Source: a virus. From it: 64,000 bases of DNA. The notes beneath the pieces were generated by a model. It searched no databases, was not told the DNA's origin, and saw only the letters and a list, made by a program, of their open reading frames with translations. Of the stretch, positions 3,679 through 45,794 are shown piece by piece. The stretch is taken from UHGV virus genome UHGV-1362809. One strand, written 5' to 3'. Positions within the stretch are counted from its first letter, which is position 1. Every line of letters starts with the position of its first letter. The position numbers were made by a program, and so were the translations under genes.

Positions 3679-5211
3679 ATGCAACATACATACGAAGTAT
3701 TTGCTTCCGCGGAAACACCAATACTGGTTGCCAAGGGTAAAAAAGACACCGTAGTTGTTGCGTCATACAAAGACCCTGAAAATGGTTCTGTTGTTTTGAC
3801 AAATGCGATGAAAAATGTTTTTAGTCCTATCACTGGTGGCGAATTAGAACGTGCTAGCAATGCGAGTGAAGTTTTGAGCTCCACTGACTTAGACGAACTA
3901 ACTGAAGTTGCAACCTGCTCCTGTGGAGCTAAGTTGTTGACAACTGCGTCACTGGCTGATAAGCTCTTTGGCGACGACCTATATTGTGTTGTTTGCGGTG
4001 AAAAAATTAAACTCGACGAAGATGAAGAAGTCGATGATACAGACGACGACGAAGAATTAGAAGTCGAGGAAGATGACGAAGAAGAAACTGCTTCCGAAAA
4101 ATGCAAGTGCGAAAAGGAAGAAACTGAAGAAGACGAATCCGATAAGGACGAAGATTCCGAAGAAGACCCTGAAGTCGAAGAATCTTGCGACGACGAAGAA
4201 GAAATTGAAATTGACGACGACGAAAACGAACAGCCGAAATCTGAAAAGGAAGAAGCTTGCGATGAAGTTGACGACAAGGACGATGCTAATTCTGAAGAAG
4301 TAGTTAAAGAAACAAAGGTTGAAGAAGAAACTTCTGAACCCGATGTCGAAGAATCTTGCGACGAACCAAAGGACGAATCAAAAGAAGAAGATTCCGAAGA
4401 GGAAGAAACTGAAGTTGAAGAATCCTGCGGCGAACCAAAAGAAGCTGAAGAAGTCGATTTGGAAGTTGAAGAAGAGCCTGAAGACCTAAAAGAAGAAGGT
4501 TGTTTGCATTATAACTGTCTGAGTTCAGTTAAAAACGTTGAAAGTGTTGAACTTGTAAAATGTGAAGCTGGATACAGAGTGTTAGTGAATAACGACCCCG
4601 TTGCTACTTTGGTTAAAGACTCTATCAAACCTGAATTGGCAAGTTTGAAAGACGACGTTAAATCATTAACGAAGGCTTTAAGTGCCTCTGTTTCAGAAGA
4701 AGGTTTTAGCAAACAGGTTATTGCCTCTTTTGGTATTAAACCCTTGTTTGTCAAAATAAATGTTGACGAAGCAGCTAACCAACGTTTAAATGCCGTTGAA
4801 GCTTCTTTGAAGACGAAATACGACGAAGAACAAAAGGCTTTTGTTGAAAGATTCAAACAGTCCATGACGATTGCGTCCGCAGGGGTCAACAAAGGACTGT
4901 ATGGTGCTAACCTAATGTCACAAGCTATTATTAAATGTTTGTCAGCTTCTGGTGCTGTTGACGCTGAAGAAGTTGTCAATGAAATTATGGCTAAGTACGG
5001 TGAAGGTTATTTAAAACAAATCATTGATAAAGCGTCTGAACTTGTTGGTAAGTCCGACGAAGTTAGAAATGAAACAGCCAGTTTGGTTTTAGCGGCTGAC
5101 TTCTCTAAAACTCGTTCAACCTATACTCATAAAGCGGTTGAACCTGTTGCAGAAACAGCATCAGTTGTTGAAGAACAACCCAAACAAAATCGTTATGCAA
5201 ATTTATTTTAG
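3679..5211 (+). CDS. hyper-acidic ESC-repeat protein with N-terminal zinc ribbon; possible scaffolding or internal head protein
   Basis: Strong SD. Repeated EESCD/EESCG units sit in a roughly 230-aa Glu/Asp-rich region. The C-terminal ~200 aa look helical. The gene lies immediately upstream of the head genes. Confidence 0.55.
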   Translation: MQHTYEVFASAETPILVAKGKKDTVVVASYKDPENGSVVLTNAMKNVFSPITGGELERASNASEVLSSTDLDELTEVATCSCGAKLLTTASLADKLFGDDLYCVVCGEKIKLDEDEEVDDTDDDEELEVEEDDEEETASEKCKCEKEETEEDESDKDEDSEEDPEVEESCDDEEEIEIDDDENEQPKSEKEEACDEVDDKDDANSEEVVKETKVEEETSEPDVEESCDEPKDESKEEDSEEEETEVEESCGEPKEAEEVDLEVEEEPEDLKEEGCLHYNCLSSVKNVESVELVKCEAGYRVLVNNDPVATLVKDSIKPELASLKDDVKSLTKALSASVSEEGFSKQVIASFGIKPLFVKINVDEAANQRLNAVEASLKTKYDEEQKAFVERFKQSMTIASAGVNKGLYGANLMSQAIIKCLSASGAVDAEEVVNEIMAKYGEGYLKQIIDKASELVGKSDEVRNETASLVLAADFSKTRSTYTHKAVEPVAETASVVEEQPKQNRYANLF

Positions 5212-7553: not shown

Positions 7554-8084
7554 ATGGCTACATATTATAACAAAGCTGGTGACCTAATTGTTTTAGCAAA
7601 TACCTGCATGGAAAAGGGCAAAACTAAAAAAGCCCTTGAATGTATGGAATTAGCTTTGCAGATGCCTGATATGCAGGATATCGTTGCAGGACTGCAGCAG
7701 TTAAACACCGTTGAAGCTAACGAAATTGAAGACGAAAACGAAGACGAAGAAGTTGAAATCGACGAATCCTGCGATGATAAAAATATGGACGACGAAGACA
7801 TCGAAGAATCCTGTGGTGACGACGAAGTTGAAGACGAAGTCGATATTGACGTAGACACGGATGACGAAGAAGATCCTGAAGAAGAAACTGCCTCTGACGA
7901 AGATGAAGATATTGATGAAGACGACGACGAAGATGACGCAGAGGAAGATGAAGATATTGATGAAGCTCGCCTTGATGAAGTTTTGTGTTCCTTACGCAAA
8001 CAGTACAATGTTACGAGTTCAATAAAATCCTCAAAAACATTGGGATCTCGTTTGGCGGCTTTAGCCAGTAAAGCTGGTAAGTAA
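7554..8084 (+). CDS. hyper-acidic ESC-repeat protein (paralog of the 3679 acidic region)
   Basis: EIDESCDD and EESCGDD units, with 60-70% D/E over about 100 aa. Confidence 0.6.
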   Translation: MATYYNKAGDLIVLANTCMEKGKTKKALECMELALQMPDMQDIVAGLQQLNTVEANEIEDENEDEEVEIDESCDDKNMDDEDIEESCGDDEVEDEVDIDVDTDDEEDPEEETASDEDEDIDEDDDEDDAEEDEDIDEARLDEVLCSLRKQYNVTSSIKSSKTLGSRLAALASKAGK

Positions 8085-30752: not shown

Positions 30753-31781
30753 ATGCTTACGGAACAAAATAAAGACTTATATATTAAAATTATGGCTAAT
30801 CCAAAACCCATAGTGGATAAGTTTAGTTTATATAGTGCCAGAGACCTATGCTGCTATAGTGTATCCTGGCTTGGCTATTACAATGTATTGTGGAAAAAAG
30901 GTATCAAACTTATTTCCGTATTTCCTAATAGTCAATACAAAGTTAGAGCATTGAAGATTACTGGGGAGTCTATTCCTATCAGTATGAAAGATTGGGAAAA
31001 AATTAAAAGACAGTTTAAGAAATACCCTACTAATGGTATTAGTGTTAAAGAGAGAATTAAAATGTACTATGAGTATGTAGTAGAATGTAGTTCCTTTAAT
31101 AGGATTAAAAGTCATTTTAATAATAAGAAGGTCTGTATGTTATCCGCTTTTAGACAGGAGGACGAGGAAGGAAATCATATTAGTCTAAAAGAAAATTTAA
31201 GGAGAACGAAAAGGTTAAAGGATAAATTAAAATTTTTAGCTAAATCCTTTAATTGGAGATACTTTGAAGTAGAAGGTTGTTATTTAGAACAGGGTCAAAC
31301 TATTCCTTCTATTGAGAAATCCTTTTTTGTTGTAGCAGATGATAATGATGTGGATTTTAATAAAATAATGATTTCATTAGGAAAGGCTTTTAATCAAGAT
31401 AGTATTTTATTGAAGTCTAAAAAAGATAATGCCTATTATGTTTCTACTAATCAAAAGTCTGATAAAATATCGGGAGTCAAACTTGGTAGATTCGTACCAA
31501 ATGTTATAGGAGAATTTTATTCTAAGCTAAGAGGCAAACCTTTCATCTTTAAGTATTCTAAACCTCATCATTATTTTAAAAATGAAAAAGGAATAAAAAT
31601 AAATAAAATATTGGGCAAACCTAATGCTAATAAATATACTTATTTAGGTATTCCTAACATATATAAACAAGGGAATAAATTTTTAGTTAAGAAATATATA
31701 AAGGGAAAATTATATAAGGAACTTTTTGATACATTACCAGAGGCTAAAACATTTTTAAATAGTCTAAAAAGATTTAGCTAA
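30753..31781 (+). CDS. Lys-rich hypothetical protein
   Basis: SD AAAGGAGAA. 342 aa. Confidence 0.55.
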   Translation: MLTEQNKDLYIKIMANPKPIVDKFSLYSARDLCCYSVSWLGYYNVLWKKGIKLISVFPNSQYKVRALKITGESIPISMKDWEKIKRQFKKYPTNGISVKERIKMYYEYVVECSSFNRIKSHFNNKKVCMLSAFRQEDEEGNHISLKENLRRTKRLKDKLKFLAKSFNWRYFEVEGCYLEQGQTIPSIEKSFFVVADDNDVDFNKIMISLGKAFNQDSILLKSKKDNAYYVSTNQKSDKISGVKLGRFVPNVIGEFYSKLRGKPFIFKYSKPHHYFKNEKGIKINKILGKPNANKYTYLGIPNIYKQGNKFLVKKYIKGKLYKELFDTLPEAKTFLNSLKRFS

Positions 31782-36940: not shown

Positions 36941-36974
36941 ACAAAAAAATACCGTGAGGAGTTAACTCCTCACG
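36941..36974 (-). terminator. rho-independent terminator for the upstream - strand operon, with an AT-rich promoter-like tract at 36905-36940
   Basis: Perfect 10-bp stem CCGTGAGGAG/CTCCTCACGG with loop TTAA. On the - strand it is followed by TATTTTTTTG and then GTAAATATACATATAAAAC. Confidence 0.75.
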
Positions 36975-36982
36975 GTTTGTCT

Positions 36983-37537
36983 CTACAAGGTGGCATAATC
37001 TTGAAAATTTTCCAGCCTATACAAAAACCTTAGTTTTTCATAATCATTAGACGCATTTATGTATTGTTTATTTATATTTCTAGTTGTATATAAATAATAT
37101 GCATCTAAGAAATACACATTACACGTAGACAATAAAGTATCTAACGCTTTTGTTGTTGGGTTGTCCATAACCACTAATAACATACCATCATGCCCTTTTA
37201 TTATAATGCCTCCTTTTTTTAAAAATACTTCAGTTAATTTAATAGCATTAGTATTATTATTTAGAACTTTATAATAGTGACAAATAAATTCAAGATGATC
37301 TACACTATCCGTAGTTATAAAGTTTCCGTCACTAAATATATACCCACACTTATTTTTTTTTGTTTTATTACTTAGCTGTTCTTCTACTGAGCATCTATTA
37401 TTCCACAAAAGTTCTGCGTATTCCTCATTATCACATTCGACTTTAACAGTTAATCCTTCTCCTAAACAACCCATACATTGTATAATATTACCATGGTTAG
37501 AAGGAAGTTTTCCACAGAAAGGACATGGCTTTAACAT
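36983..37537 (-). CDS. protein with N-terminal Lar-like (restriction alleviation family) zinc ribbon
   Basis: N-terminus MLKPCPFCGK...C.GC...AELLWNNRC resembles the Lar family CPFCG ribbon, recalled from memory rather than aligned. Confidence 0.45.
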   Translation of the reverse strand: MLKPCPFCGKLPSNHGNIIQCMGCLGEGLTVKVECDNEEYAELLWNNRCSVEEQLSNKTKKNKCGYIFSDGNFITTDSVDHLEFICHYYKVLNNNTNAIKLTEVFLKKGGIIIKGHDGMLLVVMDNPTTKALDTLLSTCNVYFLDAYYLYTTRNINKQYINASNDYEKLRFLYRLENFQDYATL

Positions 37538-38577
37538 GTTAGAATACCTCTTATTTTTTCTAAATCCCTTATAATGTCTACAGGGTCTTCTAATCCTATA
37601 CTTAATCTTACTATCAAATTCCCTTCGTGTTTAAATATTGATCCTACTGTAAATGGGGCACCGAAAGTATCTCCAAACTGTATAACTTCAAAAGAGTTCA
37701 CTATATTTTTATACACTGGTTCCATTGTATTTGTCTGTATGACTATATAAATTAGCCCGCACCTACTATCAGAGGATATTTTTGCCCTGACAGATAATAA
37801 ATACTTCTTTACTGTCTCTGTTGTACTTTTGATTCTCTCCATTCTTAATGGCAATGTGGCTATTCTAATCTGTGCCAAATAGCAGTCAACAGGATTGGGA
37901 GATATTCCCATTACTCTTATTATATTTCCGTATCCCTTTTCTTCCTGAAGATCTACATCCTTAGAAACTATAGCTCCTAACATACAATTATTATGACCAC
38001 TTACATATTTTGCCAGTGACTCTACAACAAAATCTGCACCATCATTTAAGGGATTATAATTATAAATATTTAATATGCTATTATCGATGCAGAGTTTTGA
38101 ATTATGTCCATGTATGTAGGTGCTTAATTTTTTAATATCTGGAGTATATAAAGAAATTGATCTCATGGAGTCTATAATGATAAGGGAGTTTTGTATATTA
38201 TGTTTTGTAAGTTCCTCCTCACTATCTAAATAAACGCATCTATATTGTTGAAGTACTTGAGTTACTTCACTGTAAGTACCTATTACATATATTGTTGAGA
38301 AACTCTTTGCTAGCACATAAAAAGCTGATACTCCCGAACAACACACCACACAATTTTCTACTGGTACTTCATATAAACTTGCCACAGTGGCAGTAAGAGC
38401 TTTTACATTCGGCACCATATTTTTACTACATCTACGATAGGCAATTTCATAATTTCCCAGTTCCATTGACCTTAGATATTCCTCTTTACTCTTAAAACTG
38501 TTATTTAGATTTACAGTGTTTGGAATTAAGGTCTCACTATATATAGATGGGGATACACAACGAGAAGAAAATTTCAA
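37531..38577 (-). CDS. PLP-dependent enzyme of the Cys/Met metabolism (cystathionine gamma-synthase/lyase) family
   Basis: DFVVESLAKYVSGHNN is a close match to the family PLP-lysine signature D-x4-S-x-T-K-[FY]-x-x-G-H. Confidence 0.55.
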   Translation of the reverse strand: MKFSSRCVSPSIYSETLIPNTVNLNNSFKSKEEYLRSMELGNYEIAYRRCSKNMVPNVKALTATVASLYEVPVENCVVCCSGVSAFYVLAKSFSTIYVIGTYSEVTQVLQQYRCVYLDSEEELTKHNIQNSLIIIDSMRSISLYTPDIKKLSTYIHGHNSKLCIDNSILNIYNYNPLNDGADFVVESLAKYVSGHNNCMLGAIVSKDVDLQEEKGYGNIIRVMGISPNPVDCYLAQIRIATLPLRMERIKSTTETVKKYLLSVRAKISSDSRCGLIYIVIQTNTMEPVYKNIVNSFEVIQFGDTFGAPFTVGSIFKHEGNLIVRLSIGLEDPVDIIRDLEKIRGILTC

Positions 38578-39429
38578 TTATATTACTCCAAATTCTTTAT
38601 TTATATCACATATAAAACAAGTGTTATTACTACTATATTTTTTAAAATTTATAGAATGTCCACATGTAGCCCTCTCGCAAGAACAATAAATAAAAGTATT
38701 CTTTTCCTTGTCATAATAATTAAGGACACGAGGCTGAATTATATTAATATTTGGTATATACTTAGATAAATATGTTGAATCCTGTTTTTGTACGCATCGT
38801 AAGGCCTTAAATATATGAGACTGGTCGCAGCATAAATTTTTATTATATACTATATATGGAAGTAAATTAACCCAGCAACAATGTTCTTTTTGAAATTTAG
38901 CAACATCAAAAGTATTATCTAATATACTATTACAAGTCTTTTTTGTTAGAATAGTATTACAGACTACATTAAAACCACGGGAAACTACGTAGTCCATATT
39001 AGTCAACATTAGGTCTCTGTCTTCCTGACATTTAAATCTTCCATCTAAATCATAGGAGGTAGTAAACTTTATACGAGGGAAAACATCTTCAAATGTATCT
39101 AAAAAAGTAATCAAACAACGTGTGTCTTTATATATTAAATTTGTATTTATGTATAACAAGTCAATTACATTTACACATAGCAAAGTTTTTATTTTGCTCC
39201 AAAAGTTTTTAAGTATATGCTCGCAATTATTATTGTCAAATAGTTCTCCTCCTACTATAAGAACGTGACTGCCTTTAATATAAAGGTTAGAATTAATATA
39301 GTCTATGACACACTGCAGACTTTGTTCCTTTTGTTTTAAACTTAGTAATCTTGGGTGTTCCCTCTGAAAACAAAAGGAACAATTATTGTTACAGTTATCC
39401 CATATTAAAAATTCATATATAGGTTTCAT
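38578..39429 (-). CDS. radical SAM enzyme, paralog 1 (C-terminal Cys cluster)
   Basis: N-terminus FLIWDNCNNNCSFC (CxxxCxxC), GGELF and TSYDLDGRF blocks, and C-terminal CSCERATCGH...CFICD. Confidence 0.75.
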   Translation of the reverse strand: MKPIYEFLIWDNCNNNCSFCFQREHPRLLSLKQKEQSLQCVIDYINSNLYIKGSHVLIVGGELFDNNNCEHILKNFWSKIKTLLCVNVIDLLYINTNLIYKDTRCLITFLDTFEDVFPRIKFTTSYDLDGRFKCQEDRDLMLTNMDYVVSRGFNVVCNTILTKKTCNSILDNTFDVAKFQKEHCCWVNLLPYIVYNKNLCCDQSHIFKALRCVQKQDSTYLSKYIPNINIIQPRVLNYYDKEKNTFIYCSCERATCGHSINFKKYSSNNTCFICDINKEFGVI

Positions 39430-40241
39430 TTGTTTACTTCTATACTATAAATATCCTGTTTAAAAAAAGGTATACTTTGCTGTATATTAGCTGTATACCG
39501 TAAATAAGATTCAAAACACCTATCTCTTTCAGCTTTTAAATTTTTATACAATGGAGTGTCCTTTGTTTTGGTAGGATAATATAACATATATTTATAATTA
39601 ACTTCCTCACACTCAACAAGATTTGTATCATATAAATTTATAGGCCCAAAAATAATAGGTTCCTTGTTTTTATTTTGTATCTGTATATTCAAGGGCTTAG
39701 TATATATTGCGTTTCCTTGTTCATCGAGCAACCCTATAAAAAAATCACTATCATCTAATAAAACTATTTTATCTTTAAACCATGCGTAGTCTGCACTTTT
39801 TAAAAGACACTCTCTACATAACTTAAAGTACTTAAACTTTAAATATTGTTTTAATTGGATACTAATAAAATCAAAGTGCATTAGCCTTTCTAATTGATTA
39901 ATTATGTCTCTATAGGCTTGTGTAATAGCATCTTCATCAACGTCTTGACATACTTTTAAGGGTTGTCGTTGTTCTATTTGGTAGAAAAAGTTATCCTTTT
40001 CTACCGTTATTATCTTCCAATGAATACCCCACGAAGTATATAACTGTGCTAACTTTTCTCTTATTTCCATACAGTACTTTTGATTAGAGTGCATCTGATA
40101 AACTTTGTAGTAAAAATTATCCGTTTTAATTACTACTTGTCCTTCAACACCCTTCCACTTTAAACTATTAGATAAATTACTTTTATCTACCAAGGCTATC
40201 AGCTCAAAAAAAGTATCTGTATTTTTAATTACCTCAAACAT
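39426..40241 (-). CDS. hypothetical protein within the radical-SAM operon
   Basis: 271-aa ORF with 4-nt overlaps to both neighbours. Confidence 0.5.
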   Translation of the reverse strand: MFEVIKNTDTFFELIALVDKSNLSNSLKWKGVEGQVVIKTDNFYYKVYQMHSNQKYCMEIREKLAQLYTSWGIHWKIITVEKDNFFYQIEQRQPLKVCQDVDEDAITQAYRDIINQLERLMHFDFISIQLKQYLKFKYFKLCRECLLKSADYAWFKDKIVLLDDSDFFIGLLDEQGNAIYTKPLNIQIQNKNKEPIIFGPINLYDTNLVECEEVNYKYMLYYPTKTKDTPLYKNLKAERDRCFESYLRYTANIQQSIPFFKQDIYSIEVNK

Positions 40242-41200
40242 ATAGACTCCATAATGTTTTTAAACAAGGGAATTCCTTTTTCTAATGCCTCTGGGTATTT
40301 TATAAACGAGGACGCCCTAAATCTTGGTTGAATTCTTACTCCTTCCTCCGTGTGTTCAGCCCCTTCTATTCTTATATGGTAGTTTTTCATAAGATTAAAA
40401 GTAGTTATATTAAATTTATATAAGGAATTATAAGACACAATAGAAGGAATAGTATTATTTGGTGTTAAAATACTGCTGTATTTTTCAAATTCCATATCTA
40501 GAACAGGTTTTAATAAAAATAGCTTATCCATTCTTTGGACTACTATTTTTAATAATTCTAAGTGTTGTAGGGGTCTATATTTATACTTTTTACCTATGTC
40601 CGACAATTTGTTATTTCTTATAACTATTCCCATATCAAATTCCTTAGTCATAGCATGTGCAGTACCAATTATATAGTCAAACATGCTATAGTCTCTTGGT
40701 AGTACAAACATTTCTTGTACTGCGTCTAACACCATTATTATTTTTTTATTAGTACACAAACTTTTTATTTTTTTCAAAAATATATCCTTTGTAATATTTC
40801 CTGAAGCTGTAGTACCAATTATATAACAAAAGATGTTAGTATAGCCATCCACTATTTTTTTAATACTTCCCCAGTCTAGATTTTTATTGTGCCTATTTAT
40901 TACACAAGTGTTACTTTTTTCTAAGTGTTTTTTCACACTGTCATGTTCGTCAGAGGAAACTATAACAAGGGTTTTATTATCTACGTACATAGAAAATAAT
41001 TTATCTATTATTGAAGTGGCACTTACATCAAAAGATACTGAATGAGTAGTAGCTACATTATTAGCAGGGCATAAGTCTAAATATTGTAAGGAATAATCTT
41101 CTTGTCCTATTTCATAATCCTCATACTTTTTGGATAATAGCTCTTGTTCTCTATTATCCAAAGGTTTGTACTTTAGCCACCATTGTATATAGTTATCCAT
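40229..41200 (-). CDS. class-V aminotransferase/cysteine desulfurase-like PLP-fold protein (tentative)
   Basis: IMVLDAVQEMF...DYIIGTAHAMTK resembles the NifS vDAaQ...SgHK region, and IIGTTASGN resembles GGTESNN. At 323 aa it is shorter than typical NifS. Confidence 0.4.
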   Translation of the reverse strand: MDNYIQWWLKYKPLDNREQELLSKKYEDYEIGQEDYSLQYLDLCPANNVATTHSVSFDVSATSIIDKLFSMYVDNKTLVIVSSDEHDSVKKHLEKSNTCVINRHNKNLDWGSIKKIVDGYTNIFCYIIGTTASGNITKDIFLKKIKSLCTNKKIIMVLDAVQEMFVLPRDYSMFDYIIGTAHAMTKEFDMGIVIRNNKLSDIGKKYKYRPLQHLELLKIVVQRMDKLFLLKPVLDMEFEKYSSILTPNNTIPSIVSYNSLYKFNITTFNLMKNYHIRIEGAEHTEEGVRIQPRFRASSFIKYPEALEKGIPLFKNIMESICLR

Positions 41201-42147
41201 TATTTATTTTCCATTTTTTCTATTAGGTGTTTATCGCAAATAACACAGGCATCCGAATCAATATAGGCAGCATAGTCCATAAGGTGGCCACATTTATTAA
41301 AGGATACTCCTATGTCATACTCCTTATTTACCCCTTTGTGTCTCTCATTTAACTGCATACGGTTTTCAGAATCATTAAAGTTTCTGTACAGTGTATCTGC
41401 CCTGTAGTAAATATTAAAAAGTTTATCCCACATTTCTACGGACTCTCTCTTTCTAAAAAGAGCTAAAAACTTTAAAAAAGTGGAACGATGAGGATAAAAA
41501 TTGCCTACTATTTTATTAGTTTCCTGCTTATAATTATTACCATGCAAAAAAGACCCACACTGTTTAAAGAAAAAAGATGCATTATAAGCTTTTTTCATTT
41601 TTTCAAAGTCTATCTGTCCTTGGATATATTTTTGTACAAAGTCCTCTGATAGGATAGACGTAATATTAAAATGTATTTGAGGGTATAAAGATACTATACT
41701 TTTTATATGTCCGTCCCAAGTATCAAACATCTTTTTTGTATGAAATCTGCCCAATGTATCAAAAGATGTTAAAATCCATAAGTTAGATTTGTCCTTAAAT
41801 AGTTTTAGCACTTCATAAAGGTCTTCGCACTTACCAATAGTCATGGTAGCATAAATCCAGACTTGTCTTACTATTCCTTCGTTGTATAGCTGCGCCGTTT
41901 TTTCCATCAGTCTAAAAAATTTATTTTTTATAGAAGGAGTATTCAACTGACCTTGAAAAAACTCCCCACCAAGATAGGATAACACATCATATTCTTTGTA
42001 AATACTCAAATCACTAATTTTATTAAGGGCATCATCTAAAGCTTGTTCTTTAAGTTTATCGTCTGTATGAGTATTATTTTTTCCTAAATAACAAAAGGAA
42101 CACTTAGAATTGCATTCTTGCCATAATTCAAATTGCAGTTGTTTCAT
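41200..42147 (-). CDS. radical SAM enzyme, paralog 2
   Basis: FELWQECNSKCSFC, GGEFF, TSFDTLGRF and C-terminal CGH...CVICD. Confidence 0.75.
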   Translation of the reverse strand: MKQLQFELWQECNSKCSFCYLGKNNTHTDDKLKEQALDDALNKISDLSIYKEYDVLSYLGGEFFQGQLNTPSIKNKFFRLMEKTAQLYNEGIVRQVWIYATMTIGKCEDLYEVLKLFKDKSNLWILTSFDTLGRFHTKKMFDTWDGHIKSIVSLYPQIHFNITSILSEDFVQKYIQGQIDFEKMKKAYNASFFFKQCGSFLHGNNYKQETNKIVGNFYPHRSTFLKFLALFRKRESVEMWDKLFNIYYRADTLYRNFNDSENRMQLNERHKGVNKEYDIGVSFNKCGHLMDYAAYIDSDACVICDKHLIEKMENK

Positions 42148-43067
42148 AAAGAACTTCCTCCATCTAAAGCATATAGATCACACAACACGCATTTATCACA
42201 ATCTGAGTAGCATCTATATAAAATAGAATGTCCACAGTCACTAAGAATCTCTTTTCCGTCTGATAATCTAGGTTGCTCTTTTATATCTATAGTAGTTTTA
42301 TTTATTAGTCCGGTATACTTAAAAATAGAAGAGTTTTTTGTAGAATTTGTAAAATTATAGTATGCTACTGGATTAACTTTTTTTAAGTATCTTACAAAAT
42401 TTAAAAAATCATTTCTTTTAAAAAAGAAATCCTTTAGCTGTATTCCTGTATGTATAGGGTGAGGATATAAAAAGTTTAAACTATTTCCTGGGATTTTTGA
42501 TTTTATAAATTCATTTATATCCCATTCTCTATTTTTCCATAAATCTATAACGTATTGCGTTAGTATCATTTGTACTCCCACTGTGTAATTATACCTTTTA
42601 TGGAAATTATTTATATTATCTAGTACTATTTTATGTTGCTGTTCTGTTTTAAACCTATACTTTAGATCATAAGAAAAATTTAAATCTACCTTTTCTATCC
42701 CAACAGCATCTACTATTTTGTCTATTACCTTATACAAAAAGGTCGGATCATATAAACCATTTGTTACAGAAGAATACTTACAAAAAGGATTCTTAGAAAC
42801 TTTTAATATATATTCTATTACAACATCTATTAAGTCTAAAAAAGAATCCTGTAGTTTTTTATCCGTTATGTAGTAGAGCTCTCCCCCTAACAAAGATATT
42901 CCATAACTAAACTTATTTTCCCAATCTAGCAGCTTAATATTTTGTTTTATAGCATCTAACCAAACTAATTGCTTTTCGTATGTATAAGGTATTCTTTGTT
43001 CCCTTAAACAAAAGGCACAATCATTACAGCAATTAGGCCATACTCCATATTGACACATATTAGCCAT
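42144..43067 (-). CDS. radical SAM enzyme, paralog 3
   Basis: VWPNCCNDCAFC, GGELYY, FSYDLKYRF and C-terminal CGHSILYRCYSDCDKCVLCD. Confidence 0.7.
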   Translation of the reverse strand: MANMCQYGVWPNCCNDCAFCLREQRIPYTYEKQLVWLDAIKQNIKLLDWENKFSYGISLLGGELYYITDKKLQDSFLDLIDVVIEYILKVSKNPFCKYSSVTNGLYDPTFLYKVIDKIVDAVGIEKVDLNFSYDLKYRFKTEQQHKIVLDNINNFHKRYNYTVGVQMILTQYVIDLWKNREWDINEFIKSKIPGNSLNFLYPHPIHTGIQLKDFFFKRNDFLNFVRYLKKVNPVAYYNFTNSTKNSSIFKYTGLINKTTIDIKEQPRLSDGKEILSDCGHSILYRCYSDCDKCVLCDLYALDGGSSL

Positions 43068-43966
43068 TATAGTAATCCCGTTATTTTTTTAAATTGTTGT
43101 GTTACTTCCAAAATAGATTCTTCACAGTCATAAAAATAGCTTGACGAAAAAGGATCATATTTTTGTCTATCGGATGTAAAGGTTCTACCATCTCTACTAT
43201 CATAATAAAATATTGTGTTAGACCTTAAACTACTAGACAAAAAATCCTTAGTAAGCAACCCTTTTTTATTTAAAAAAACCAAGAAAGAAATAAACTCTTT
43301 CTTTCTTGGTAAAAACAAAGGAATAATCTTATTTGCCTGTTCTTTATTTTTAAAATTTCGTACAGTAGGTTCAATAAAATCTAATCTAGCTGCATACTTT
43401 TCACTGAACATTCCTATGTCAAACTGTCCTGATAAAACTTGCTGTATAAAATGATGAGTTACTATTAGTTCGATGTGTGTCTTTATATTCGTACTATTTA
43501 TTTTTCTTACATTATTTTCCCATAAAGTAAGACCATTATTTTTAAATCGGTATATAGTATCATAGGATGTACATATTACTACATTTTTTTCTATATCTAA
43601 TTCTTTTAAGTAATGTAAGAATTCATCAAACATAGTAGATTCAAATATTAACGACGTTGCTATAAGCAGTCTATTTACTTTTTCTTCCTTAATCTTTTTA
43701 GAAATTTCTAAAATTACTTTTGTAAATAAAAGATACTCATTTTCTTTCATTTGACCATCAAAAAATTCTCCGCCGATTAGCCCGATAGTATCACAAAACT
43801 CTACATTTTTTATGCGACATAAAGTTTTTTTCAAGGAATTTATTTTAGAAACAGATGTACTAATAAATCTATTATAACAAAAGTCGCATCCGTTTTTACA
43901 GTCTGCCCATAATTCAAACTGTAAAAATTTATGTTCCTTTTGTATTATTTCCTTCTCTGAGTTCAT
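43067..43966 (-). CDS. radical SAM enzyme, paralog 4 (lacks the C-terminal Cys cluster)
   Basis: FELWADCKNGCDFC, GGEFFDG and TSYDTIYRF. Confidence 0.75.
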   Translation of the reverse strand: MNSEKEIIQKEHKFLQFELWADCKNGCDFCYNRFISTSVSKINSLKKTLCRIKNVEFCDTIGLIGGEFFDGQMKENEYLLFTKVILEISKKIKEEKVNRLLIATSLIFESTMFDEFLHYLKELDIEKNVVICTSYDTIYRFKNNGLTLWENNVRKINSTNIKTHIELIVTHHFIQQVLSGQFDIGMFSEKYAARLDFIEPTVRNFKNKEQANKIIPLFLPRKKEFISFLVFLNKKGLLTKDFLSSSLRSNTIFYYDSRDGRTFTSDRQKYDPFSSSYFYDCEESILEVTQQFKKITGLL

Positions 43967-44548
43967 TTATATATTCTCTACTGTTTGTACATAAGTATAA
44001 GTGCAGGGTCTATTTCTAATACTATTCTTTACATAATAAAATAGGGAATTTATATAGTCATTTACATGGTCTTCCCTTATTAAATCTGTGTTGCCGGATC
44101 CTTTAAAATATTCCTTATAGAAATAGGACACATCTCCTTGATTATAAATCACATAAGTGTTTGGGTCCAAATAACTACAAGTAAAAAAAAGTCTGCAAGA
44201 ACAAAAAGACATCAAATTATTAATTAAATTAAAAAAGTCCTCAGCAGACACTCTAGCATTTATATTCGGTACAATAGACCTTATAAAACTATCCAGCTGA
44301 CTAGACATGGTACTAAAACTACATTCTGTAATAGGGTTGCTAATATAAGCAGTCATTACAGGTAATTCTCTTCTACGAGCCCAGCTATTGTATAATGTAT
44401 ATGTTCCATCAGTAGCCTCGTACCTATAGGAAAAATTAGGTTTAAAACATGCTGGCAGCCCTGCATAGTTGCTTATGTTTATACAAGTAGAAGAGATTAA
44501 AGTTTTTAGGTAGTTTATTACTTGGGAATATGTGCATAAAATTTCCAT
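43967..44548 (-). CDS. hypothetical protein; paralog of the 44558 gene
   Basis: YSQVINYLKTLISSTCINIS resembles FSQVISEVKKYIKTICHNID of its neighbour. Confidence 0.5.
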   Translation of the reverse strand: MEILCTYSQVINYLKTLISSTCINISNYAGLPACFKPNFSYRYEATDGTYTLYNSWARRRELPVMTAYISNPITECSFSTMSSQLDSFIRSIVPNINARVSAEDFFNLINNLMSFCSCRLFFTCSYLDPNTYVIYNQGDVSYFYKEYFKGSGNTDLIREDHVNDYINSLFYYVKNSIRNRPCTYTYVQTVENI

Positions 44549-44557
44549 TAATTTCTC

Positions 44558-45193
44558 CTATATAATCATATAGGCTATGTATACACTACTACTAGAACTA
44601 CTACTACTAGAACTACTACTAGAACTACTGCAGCTACTACTAGAACTACTACAAGCCACCTGAATAGACGTTACTATTTTGTGCATATTAAGGACATTAC
44701 CGCACAAATTAGATATTTCATTAATTCTCGCTAATAAATAGGCAGACTGAATATTTCCAATATCCTTTAAGCCGCCACCAATGGTTAAATAATTAGCCGG
44801 ATTCTTATTATAAAATACTGAGATGTGGCTATTAACTCCTGCTGACACAAAAACTATGCGTGTGGTCAAAAAACTGGCTATATTATTCATTAAGTACAAT
44901 AAATTTTGAACCGTAATTAGGTCGTCGTCTAAAAAGACAATACCCCTAGAACTTAAAAAGTCCAAAAGTTGAGATTCTACTGTACTGCTGGGAACTACTA
45001 CTGCAAGGTTATCAGTAACAGTTGCTGTTATAGTTTGTTTACTTCCCTGTGAAATAACATAAGTGGAACCATTCCGTAAAGAAATATCTACAGAAGAAGA
45101 AAAGGAATCGATATTATGACATATCGTTTTTATGTATTTTTTTACCTCAGATATTACTTGAGAAAAAGTAATCAAATTTGACTTATCAACCAT
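44558..45193 (-). CDS. hypothetical protein with C-terminal poly-Ser/Cys tail
   Basis: Ends ...ACSSSSSSCSSSSSSSSSSSSSSSSVYIAYMII. The tail is encoded by an ACT/AGA trinucleotide repeat. Confidence 0.5.
   Translation of the reverse strand: MVDKSNLITFSQVISEVKKYIKTICHNIDSFSSSVDISLRNGSTYVISQGSKQTITATVTDNLAVVVPSSTVESQLLDFLSSRGIVFLDDDLITVQNLLYLMNNIASFLTTRIVFVSAGVNSHISVFYNKNPANYLTIGGGLKDIGNIQSAYLLARINEISNLCGNVLNMHKIVTSIQVACSSSSSSCSSSSSSSSSSSSSSSVYIAYMII
44585..44653. repeat. imperfect trinucleotide (ACT/AGA) tandem repeat encoding poly-Ser on the - strand
   Basis: Read directly from the sequence: (ACT)n interspersed with AGA, GCA and GCT. Confidence 0.8.
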
Positions 45194-45794
45194 TTTCAGT
45201 TCCTTTTAAGTTCTCTGCAAACAGGTTTATTAAATTAAGGCTTATTGCTTTATTAATTAAAAGACAATTAATATAGTAGGCTGAGTCCTCTATATAGTAG
45301 TCCGGAATTTTTTCCATACCAGAGGTACTAAGTATTCCACATAAAGTTTGAAAATCATATTGTTCAAATATTTGTGCGTATAATGGAGACAATGTTTTTA
45401 CAGTGTCCATAGGAGAAAAAAAGTTTTTATCATAGGAGCACAATAAACTAATAAATTTAGACGCTAATTCCTTAGAAACTTCCTCCAATTTATCTTTCAT
45501 AAGAATTCTTATTTCTATAAATTGGTCTAAGTCCTTAATAAATACTAAAGGATTATTAAAAAAACTATCATCTAAAGAATTATATGTTTTTATTAGATTA
45601 ACTAAATTTGAAATAAAAACTTGGTTTATGTTGTTACTATCTGACAAAAATAAGTCTAACGCATAAATAATGTACTCTGTGGGTAAATTTTTTAAGGAAA
45701 CTTTGGCATCCTTGCACTTTAGTATAGGAAGTAATTCCTGTTTTAAAGTGCCCTTTTCTATATCAGAATTAAAAGTAATAATATCCCTTGACAT
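45186..45794 (-). CDS. hypothetical protein (first gene of the accessory operon)
   Basis: 202-aa ORF that overlaps the next gene. Confidence 0.5.
   Translation of the reverse strand: MSRDIITFNSDIEKGTLKQELLPILKCKDAKVSLKNLPTEYIIYALDLFLSDSNNINQVFISNLVNLIKTYNSLDDSFFNNPLVFIKDLDQFIEIRILMKDKLEEVSKELASKFISLLCSYDKNFFSPMDTVKTLSPLYAQIFEQYDFQTLCGILSTSGMEKIPDYYIEDSAYYINCLLINKAISLNLINLFAENLKGTENG

Follow-up and report, generated by a model that had tools for sequence, protein, structure and literature searches.

What becomes of a phage protein that ends in a run of serine and cysteine and is encoded beside several radical S-adenosylmethionine (radical-SAM, or rSAM) enzymes? The question is raised by a 64,000-nucleotide stretch of the virus genome UHGV-1362809 (here called the window), in which a minus-strand gene at positions 44558 to 45193 encodes a 211-residue protein, T*, with such a tail. 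The gene downstream, T, encodes a paralog without the tail, and behind it lie the rSAM genes. A preliminary description made from the sequence alone had proposed that T* is a precursor or substrate of these enzymes, with the tail acting as a core peptide. Comparison with related loci leads us to a modified form of that proposal, in which T* is a dedicated protein substrate of a phage rSAM maturation pathway; we are evenly divided as to whether it is correct. We are led to it by gene linkage, the structure of the operon, and the pattern of selection on the tail, and each of these is considered below together with the alternatives on which it bears.

The Ser/Cys tail and the protein that carries it

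The C terminus of T* reads VA-C-S6-C-S15-VYIAYMII. Its Ser/Cys tract comprises 23 codons (TGT, 6 Ser, TGC, and 15 Ser; residues 181 to 203) and occupies positions 44585 to 44653, where Tandem Repeats Finder detected periods of 3, 12, and 15 nucleotides. A codon-level reading agrees exactly with the coordinates given for the repeat in the preliminary description and corrects it in two respects: the longer run is Ser15 and not Ser16, and T* does not terminate directly after the tract but continues for eight residues, VYIAYMII (44561 to 44584), which are the best-conserved part of the tail, before the stop codon at 44558 to 44560. No other open reading frame (ORF) in the window encodes a run of six or more serines. 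Disorder is predicted for the tail, which is preceded by a globular domain (residues 1 to 180; 44654 to 45193) of alpha/beta type.

Presence of the tail is a property of the whole family. An initial database search returned 34 homologs of T*, nearly all of them having a C-terminal tract rich in Ser and Cys, to which the full-length sequences add a hydrophobic end. An exhaustive profile search covering 1.84 billion cluster representatives (50% identity) then defined a family of 500 representatives at an E value of ≤0.001, including 348 at an E value of ≤1e-10. Among 168 family sequences examined, 128 had a tract of at least eight Ser/Cys residues lying no more than 14 residues from the C terminus, while the other 40 were mostly fragments, tail-less paralogs, or proteins with interrupted tracts. 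Absence of the tail from homologs, which the preliminary description had named as evidence that would count against its proposal, is therefore not what we observe. Tracts are 8 to 32 residues long (median, 20) and consist of ~80% Ser, 16% Cys, 2% Thr, 1% Ala, and 1% Asn. Residues reachable by a single mutation (Thr, Ala, Asn, Gly, Pro, Phe, Tyr, Ile, and Arg) are nearly excluded, as would be expected if each position needs a side chain with a beta heteroatom and if the chemistry makes little distinction between Ser and Cys. The number of cysteines ranges from 0 to 7, with 3 the most frequent value and 3 to 4 the commonest range, and their spacing is loose, since even the commonest arrangement, in which the final Cys precedes the motif's aromatic residue by seven positions, occurs in only 38 of 118 tails. 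The terminal motif itself has the consensus hydrophobic-F-I-A-Y-M-[KDERN]-[IL]-COOH and is the most conserved segment of the tail. Across all fetched loci, motifs of the FIAYM type were exclusive to T* family proteins (33/33), and a scan of IMG/VR with the DNA pattern AGY-AGY-x-[FY]IAYM, which sought the tail on other families, gave eight chance-like matches, none of them informative.

The tract might owe its form to the DNA that encodes it. The preliminary description had called the repeat slippage-prone and suggested that it could drive length variation, in which case the tract could be a contingency locus where slippage alters the length or frame of the tail at high frequency and so varies the phage phenotype. 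The window copy does lend itself to this idea, being exceptional among tracts in its AGT richness (17 AGY and 4 TCN serine codons, within a tract written in AGT, TCT, AGC, and TGY codons), in its longest same-codon run of four AGT, and in its 12- to 15-nucleotide period; moreover, locus L039 (protein P0001), at 95.8% identity, is shorter by exactly one 15-nucleotide unit, giving Ser10 in place of Ser15. However, three contigs from different samples (L040 to L042), with 98.5 to 100% DNA identity to the window over up to 6.6 kb, share its tract length, the exact T* protein recurs on six metagenomic contigs, and every length change that we observed preserves both the frame and the C-terminal motif. 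Across 29 distinct tracts (the window copy and 28 others), serine is encoded by TCA (189), AGT (180), TCT (144), AGC (49), TCG (23), and TCC (14). Runs of the same serine codon span one to four codons, mostly two or three, and AGY and TCN codons are interleaved in the 28 other tracts, the opposite of a slippage-prone design. Because two substitutions separate an AGY codon from a TCN codon, this interleaving indicates that serine identity is held at the protein level while repeat purity is avoided. To judge from the codons, selection on the tail acts at the protein level, and the L039 difference is ordinary indel evolution within a repeat, not a hypervariable switch. The term slippage-prone thus suits the window copy alone, and that weakly; length variation as a function of the repeat is not supported, and we consider a contingency locus very improbable.

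The globular domain is shared with T (43967 to 44548, minus strand; 193 residues), which terminates just past the last beta-strand. The two proteins are 25% identical over 142 residues that include the N-terminal block (BLASTP E value, 5e-9), and their subfamilies align over 180 columns with 99.6% probability and an E value of 4.5e-24 in a profile-profile comparison, bearing out the earlier view that they are paralogs of ~200 residues with a common N-terminal block. In both, helix 1 ends in a near-invariant Cys-x-Asn (C25/N27 in T* and C22/N24 in T), and from this conservation the domain may have a reactive site of its own and be more than a passive carrier. T usually follows T*, although in some loci a second T* takes its place. 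Relatives of T* are only ~35% identical to it. No solved fold matched T*, and neither T*, T, nor the product of the gene upstream of T*, H, belongs to a family in Pfam, PHROGs, NCBIfam, or PADLOC. Two matches were set aside: that of T* to phrog_232 ("baseplate wedge subunit"; E value, 0.003), which falls on the low-complexity C terminus and is compositional, and that of T to the PADLOC model PDC-S19 (E value, 4e-4), which is weak. Searches of GenBank phages with 14 kb around the locus (megablast), T* (tblastn), and rSAM-B (tblastn) gave no match, and a literature search combining radical SAM and phage with polyserine, serine-rich, or RiPP (ribosomally synthesized and posttranslationally modified peptide) terms found no description of this family.

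A recurrent module of H, T*, T, and radical-SAM genes

In the window, T* is the second gene of a minus-strand operon. The first, H (45186 to 45794), encodes a 202-residue protein with a conserved motif of the YNTLDDSFF type, and its stop codon overlaps the start of T* by 8 nucleotides. Three rSAM genes, rSAM-A (43067 to 43966), rSAM-B (42144 to 43067), and rSAM-C (41200 to 42147), follow directly downstream of T on the same strand, and rSAM-D (38578 to 39429) lies farther on. From H through the last gene at 36983 to 37537, adjacent genes overlap or abut, and the operon closes at one strong terminator, a perfect 11-bp hairpin (36951 to 36976; 7 GC pairs) with T runs on both strands. This hairpin resembles a bidirectional intrinsic terminator and separates the operon from the next minus-strand genes, an arrangement that speaks for T* as the rSAM substrate.

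By clustering, we grouped the ORFs of 31 loci, namely, the window and 30 relatives on metagenomic phage contigs that reach 313 kb. The order H-T*-T-rSAM recurs in 28 of the 31 loci. H is present as one gene per locus in 28 of them, nearly always directly beside T*, and the rSAM orthogroups A, B, C, and D are found in 27, 29, 26, and 25 loci, respectively. The most conserved gene of the module is rSAM-B, with at least 801 homologs; 120 listed homologs are 62 to 74% identical to the window protein, apart from one that is near-identical. To avoid circularity, IMG/VR was resampled with rSAM-B as the only seed, and both H and T* were found within 6 kb in 21 of 22 loci, the remaining locus being cut by a contig end. 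In some genomes (L018 and L050), entire H-T*-T-rSAM units are duplicated. H is unrelated to T and T* and, like the rSAM-A, -B, and -C profiles, its profile matched nothing significant among PDB sequences; given its constant position, we regard it as a candidate helper or recognition partner.

The phages that carry the module are large and come from animal gut and rumen metagenomes. The longest contig shown with the exact T* protein measures 237 kb, so the phage of the window is itself a large one, and since the window (G+C content, 35.6%) encodes a tail sheath, a baseplate wedge and hub, and several tail-fiber proteins, its source is a myovirus. Many of the 31 loci carry T4-type portal, capsid, gp13, and gp15 genes. 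Every match labeled as a genome was a metagenome bin (chicken, rabbit, buffalo rumen, and the like), and a profile search of genome contigs with rSAM-B returned metagenome-assembled bins only and no isolates.

This setting raises the alternative that T*, T, and H belong to the tail-fiber apparatus as structural or assembly components, the tract being a flexible hydrophilic linker and the FIAYM segment a docking strand, and that the rSAM genes are cotranscribed with them but encode enzymes with another target, for example a sugar, a nucleotide, or a different virion protein. In the window, the module comes directly after same-strand genes for tail fibers and baseplate. A fiber-like gene (cluster c4), often preceded by three more large fiber-like genes, adjoins the module in 12 of the 31 loci, mostly directly upstream of H or T*. 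Predicted disorder of the tail would suit a linker, and some loci add a carbamoyltransferase, a DegT aminotransferase, or a GT2 glycosyltransferase, enzymes typical of glycan chemistry. However, the module also occurs away from structural genes, beside serine hydroxymethyltransferase (SHMT) and LuxS with DNA polymerase, SbcCD, lysozyme, or GroEL and ClpP, and at these places the rSAM genes are never lost; the differing neighborhoods lead us to view it as a portable unit. A plain linker would not be expected to exclude Thr, Gly, Asn, Ala, and Pro yet retain 16% Cys, the C-terminal motif occurs on no fiber or other protein of these loci, and among PHROG structural families only the weak low-complexity match to phrog_232 was obtained. 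We therefore judge a structural role unlikely, though it is the alternative that we take most seriously.

The enzymes and their possible action on T*

Are the enzymes of a kind that could act on such a tail? All four are short proteins (rSAM-A, 299 residues; rSAM-B, 307; rSAM-C, 315; rSAM-D, 283) that begin almost at the CX3CX2C motif (C23/C27/C30 in A, C13/C17/C20 in B, C12/C16/C19 in C, and C13/C17/C20 in D). Alignments of orthogroups A, B, and C show this motif to be invariant. They score below the gathering threshold of Pfam PF04055 (19.1 to 23.8 bits versus 29.5), although some homologs of rSAM-B have a precomputed match to this family, and the partial TIM barrel of radical-SAM proteins is present. 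A conserved C-G-H...[D-x-D]...C-x2-C-D stands at the C terminus of rSAM-B, -C, and -D and takes the form C278-G-H...C286...C293-x2-C296 in rSAM-B (CX7CX6CX2C plus His), C-G-H...C-x2-C-D in rSAM-C (CX(~14)CX2C), and C-G-H-S...C-F-x-C-D in rSAM-D. The rSAM-A orthogroup has no C-terminal Cys cluster and usually ends in G-[FY]-I-D-S-D. rSAM-B and rSAM-C are full-length paralogs (hhalign E value, 5e-26). The enzymes had previously been called SPASM-like, a label that does not hold: Pfam detects no SPASM domain (PF13186) in any of the four, the seven-Cys motif for two auxiliary clusters is missing, rSAM-A has no cluster at its C terminus, and the patterns of B and C differ. From these motifs, a single twitch-like auxiliary site is possible. 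The structural model of rSAM-B is closest to anSME, followed by peptide maturases; its neighbors include ChlB (13.0), viperin (12.9), GDGT/MAS (12.4), SkfB (12.2), HemN (12.2), and SuiB (12.0), with CteB, TigE, PqqE, and EpeE ranked lower. Enzymes that modify proteins or peptides thus lead the list for this model, by a small margin over other rSAM proteins, and we treat the ranking as a lead and not as a test.

A further enzyme-like gene, AT5-like (40229 to 41200, minus strand), encodes a protein with the class V aminotransferase fold (PF00266; 24.9 bits, residues 62 to 176 only) and is found in 18 of the 31 loci. It bears on the possibility that T* and T are carriers of Fe-S clusters or sulfur for the phage rSAM enzymes, with the cysteines of the flexible tail as cluster ligands and the AT5-like protein as a cysteine desulfurase. 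The class V fold is that of NifS and IscS, tails most often have 3 or 4 Cys, and these phages encode from 4 to ~10 Fe-S enzymes, all of which would fit such a carrier. In the 19 members compared, however, E-H and D-A-V-Q are kept, T-x-H-[A/S] stands where S-x-H-K is expected (a position assigned by spacing from DAVQ only), and no Cys is conserved; judging by these motifs, the protein probably lacks the lysine that forms a Schiff base with pyridoxal phosphate (PLP), is hence unlikely to be a cysteine desulfurase, and may instead be of the pyridoxamine phosphate type or a pseudoenzyme; phmmer against PDB sequences yielded no solved relative to support the assignment. Some tails have 0 or 1 Cys, Cys spacing is not conserved, known scaffolds bind their clusters in folded sites, and the minimal modules L001 and L003 have no AT5-like gene. 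Taken together, these points make an Fe-S or sulfur carrier improbable.

Three groups of known systems offer comparisons for T* as an rSAM substrate. In architecture, the nearest published analog is the HXS system, in which HxsA, a protein of 214 residues with His-x-Ser repeats, is matured by the rSAM enzymes HxsB and HxsC with the small helper HxsD; the helper binds one of the rSAM enzymes, and the Ser/His motif is covalently modified (PMC13128918). Both systems place a protein of ~200 residues with a low-complexity, Ser-containing repeat beside more than one rSAM gene and a small nonenzymatic partner, so HXS provides, by analogy, a precedent for maturation by rSAM enzymes of a full-size protein with a low-complexity repeat. 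They differ in that HXS is bacterial and defensive whereas the T* module is found in phages, and in that HxsA has five HxS repeats, a signal/processing region, and a peptidoglycan-binding domain whereas in T* the Ser/Cys tract is unbroken, the fold is without a match, a conserved follower peptide is present, and a paralog lacks the tail. T* contains no HxS repeats, no NCBIfam Hxs model matched any protein of the module (including HxsB and HxsC against the four rSAM proteins at an E value of ≤0.1), and PADLOC returned only weak pVip matches.

In possible chemistry the nearest analog is anSME (e.g., PDB 4k36), which oxidizes Ser or Cys in proteins and leads the structural neighbors of rSAM-B. 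The anSME proteins are larger (~370 to 400 residues) and have a full SPASM domain and two auxiliary clusters, whereas the module enzymes have ~300 residues and at most one four-Cys/His motif; anSME also recognizes (C/S)-x-(P/A)-x-R in sulfatases, a Pro/Ala-x-Arg context that the T* tail does not provide. With an identity of 13% and no match to the Pfam SPASM or NCBIfam anSME models, rSAM-B does not belong to the anSME family.

In gene logic, T* comes closest to RiPP pathways that rely on rSAM enzymes, such as those of the sactipeptides and ranthipeptides (SCIFF and PapB), the poly-cyclopropylglycine peptides (TvgB/TigE), and the proteusins, with their large leaders and multiple rSAM enzymes. 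In these pathways, a C-terminal repetitive or Cys-rich core is encoded just upstream of one to several rSAM maturases. SkfB, CteB, SuiB, and TigE are among the structural neighbors of rSAM-B, and a weak N-terminal match to PapB was obtained (E value, 1e-4), although it scores 21.6 bits against a cutoff of 340 and covers only residues 4 to 63, the CX3CX2C region. What would be the leader in T* is a folded domain of ~180 residues with an invariant Cys-x-Asn, and there are a paralogous partner and a follower peptide; the module encodes no protease, exporter, SPASM domain, or recognizable RiPP recognition element (RRE), and at 211 residues and with 0 to 7 loosely spaced Cys, T* does not resemble the precursor of a sactipeptide or ranthipeptide. 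An alternative is that a small molecule or cofactor is assembled from the C-terminal peptide or the tract, with T* as its scaffold, and later released, in the manner of PQQ, mycofactocin, or pearlin. Apart from the strong conservation of the terminal peptide, little recommends this to us: the module has no conserved peptidase gene and no conserved tailoring genes of the PqqB/C-like or MftD/E-like kinds, the NCBIfam MftC and PqqE models do not match, and the long Ser/Cys tract would be left unexplained. We consider a scaffold role quite unlikely.

Another comparison comes from mycobacteriophages, whose capsid and tail-tube proteins bear C-terminal Ser/Thr-rich tails that are glycosylated by glycosyltransferases. 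The likeness lies in a hydroxyl-rich C-terminal extension on a phage protein as the site of a phage-encoded modification. Those tails, however, are on major structural proteins and depend on glycosyltransferases, whereas the tract of T* is associated with rSAM partners, includes Cys, excludes Thr, and has a glycosyltransferase nearby in few loci. We class the module as a case of rSAM enzymes maturing a ribosomal product; its substrate fold, follower motif, paralog pair, and enzymes have no characterized relative.

How might maturation of T* proceed? The folded part of T*, ~180 residues, would present a tract of ~20 residues made only of Ser and Cys and capped by a hydrophobic Φ-FIAYM-x-I (where Φ is a hydrophobic residue). 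The C-terminal peptide, perhaps together with H and T, would dock the tail onto the rSAM enzymes, which would abstract hydrogen atoms from the Ser and Cys residues there, perhaps also from the terminal peptide, leading to covalent modification of the tail. In this scheme the terminal peptide would serve as a docking follower for an enzyme, H, or T, or alternatively as a second modification site, and H may be to the rSAM enzymes what HxsD is to HxsC. Because the tract tolerates only Ser and Cys while their number and order drift freely, we favor chemistry that would treat the two residues alike, such as C-beta oxidation of the anSME type to formylglycine or cross-linking through ethers or thioethers. 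A leader-core peptide, as first proposed, does not describe T* well, since T* is a folded protein of 20 kDa that has a paralog as its partner and a conserved follower peptide at its C terminus. Nor do our data show any of the reactions named in the preliminary description (thioether formation, dehydration, or glycosylation); in particular, the cysteines vary too much in number and position to allow a fixed pattern of cross-links. What stands of the original proposal is the comparative association of the tailed protein with the enzymes, seen in 28 of 31 loci and in all 21 informative IMG/VR loci; the modification itself is a proposal. A bolder and, to our minds, tentative version holds that four orphan rSAM enzymes, a helper, and a PLP-fold protein without its lysine turn the Ser/Cys tail into a new polymeric modification, for which a run of formylglycine or diaminopropionate-type residues and a ladder of ethers or thioethers are candidates. 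Mature T* would then be a phage effector or a virion component with chemistry not seen in known RiPPs or modified proteins.

Several observations weigh against T* as an rSAM substrate. Gene linkage does not prove a relation of enzyme and substrate, and the tie between tail and enzymes is read from sequence. In addition to their lack of a SPASM domain, the enzymes have no RRE recognizable with Pfam or NCBIfam; starting as they do at CX3CX2C, they have no N-terminal domain that could be a fused RRE, and the separate H protein has no detectable family. Sequence profiles give no solved relative of the enzymes, the module differs from classical RiPP clusters in having neither protease nor exporter, and the loose number and spacing of cysteines run counter to a fixed cross-link topology. 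In two of nine genome bins seeded with rSAM-B (L029 and L030), the rSAM set was found without H, T*, or T in the DNA fetched; a further genome-bin locus, L022, is cut by a contig end. Finally, the module comes directly after tail-fiber-like genes in ~40% of the 31 loci, which would fit a structural T* as well.

If T* is nevertheless an rSAM substrate, the module would represent a widespread and uncharacterized modification system in large phages of animal gut and rumen metagenomes, and a phage example among the very few cases in which rSAM enzymes mature a whole protein instead of a short peptide. It would also add four new clades of minimal rSAM enzymes of ~300 residues, each with a defined and readily synthesized substrate, and the homopolymeric Ser/Cys core could reveal new chemistry. 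Under any of the hypotheses considered, the T* family provides a robust new annotation for phage genomes, together with its C-terminal motif and the genes that constantly accompany it.

Accessory genes and other features of the window

The remaining genes of the operon, all on the minus strand, are less constant than H, T*, T, and the rSAM genes. Between the AT5-like gene and rSAM-D lies a gene for a 271-residue protein (39426 to 40241) that matches no Pfam, PHROG, or NCBIfam family and has homologs in three loci only. Downstream of rSAM-D, a PLP enzyme of Cys/Met metabolism (37531 to 38577; PF01053 E value, 3e-32) belongs to the cystathionine gamma-synthase/lyase family, with NCBIfam matches as well; it is a cotranscribed accessory seen only in the window among the loci examined. 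The last gene encodes a 184-residue protein without a Pfam match of its own that clusters with proteins of L006 matching PF14354, and homologs elsewhere have a Lar-like N-terminal zinc ribbon. Optional extras in other loci comprise two small unknown families, a MiaB/RimO-like methylthiotransferase, the carbamoyltransferase, DegT aminotransferase, and GT2 glycosyltransferase mentioned above, Lar-like zinc-ribbon proteins, and rSAM genes of the SPASM type. The carbamoyltransferase, DegT, GT2, and MiaB/RimO-like enzymes vary among L005, L020, L024, L030, and the group of L011, L022, L023, and L025. L030 has at least nine rSAM genes, two DegT genes, and two carbamoyltransferase genes, with no T* in range.

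Enzymes of the SAM/methionine cycle adjoin the module in two places, namely, the PLP enzyme of the window and LuxS with SHMT in L001 (7146 to 9003), and we take these neighbors as hints of SAM turnover or serine supply. The window also encodes, on the plus strand at 30753 to 31781, a 342-residue protein with an S-adenosylmethionine lyase domain (PF23780; E value, 2.2e-15; residues 129 to 240). A phage with this domain and at least four SAM-consuming rSAM enzymes poses a question about the timing or compartmentation of SAM use. Another plus-strand ORF (197 to 1162; 321 residues) has a ThyX (Thy1) domain at residues 173 to 315 and an N-terminal half without a family match. It is relevant to DNA hypermodification, in which rSAM and PLP enzymes act on thymidine derivatives (PMC8989533), an alternative that we considered only lightly; ThyX is present, and no kinase or transferase family was matched among the proteins scanned.

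A second module of similar design stands beside the T* module in L012 (197 to 1624), L014 (1997 to 3444), and L015 (259 to 1672), together with adjacent genes. It consists of a protein of ~230 residues ending in Y-T-C-H-x-N-C-H-x-x-C-[HY]-x-x-R-[SG]-R-R, a partner of ~240 residues, and four to six other rSAM genes, several of the SPASM type; by hhalign it has no homology to T*. A Cys/His-tailed family beside other rSAM sets (c23), considered as a distant paralog of T*, showed no homology to it by hhalign. In L017 (14615 to 15961) and L026, a 448-residue ORF (cluster c41) directly follows the AT5-like gene and resembles, by eye, transposon proteins of the TnpB/IS605 OrfB type. Lastly, imperfect tandem repeats of the GAAGAC/GAAGAT type lie within plus-strand ORFs of the window at 4013 to 4081 and 7720 to 7955, where they probably encode acidic, Glu/Asp-rich tracts.

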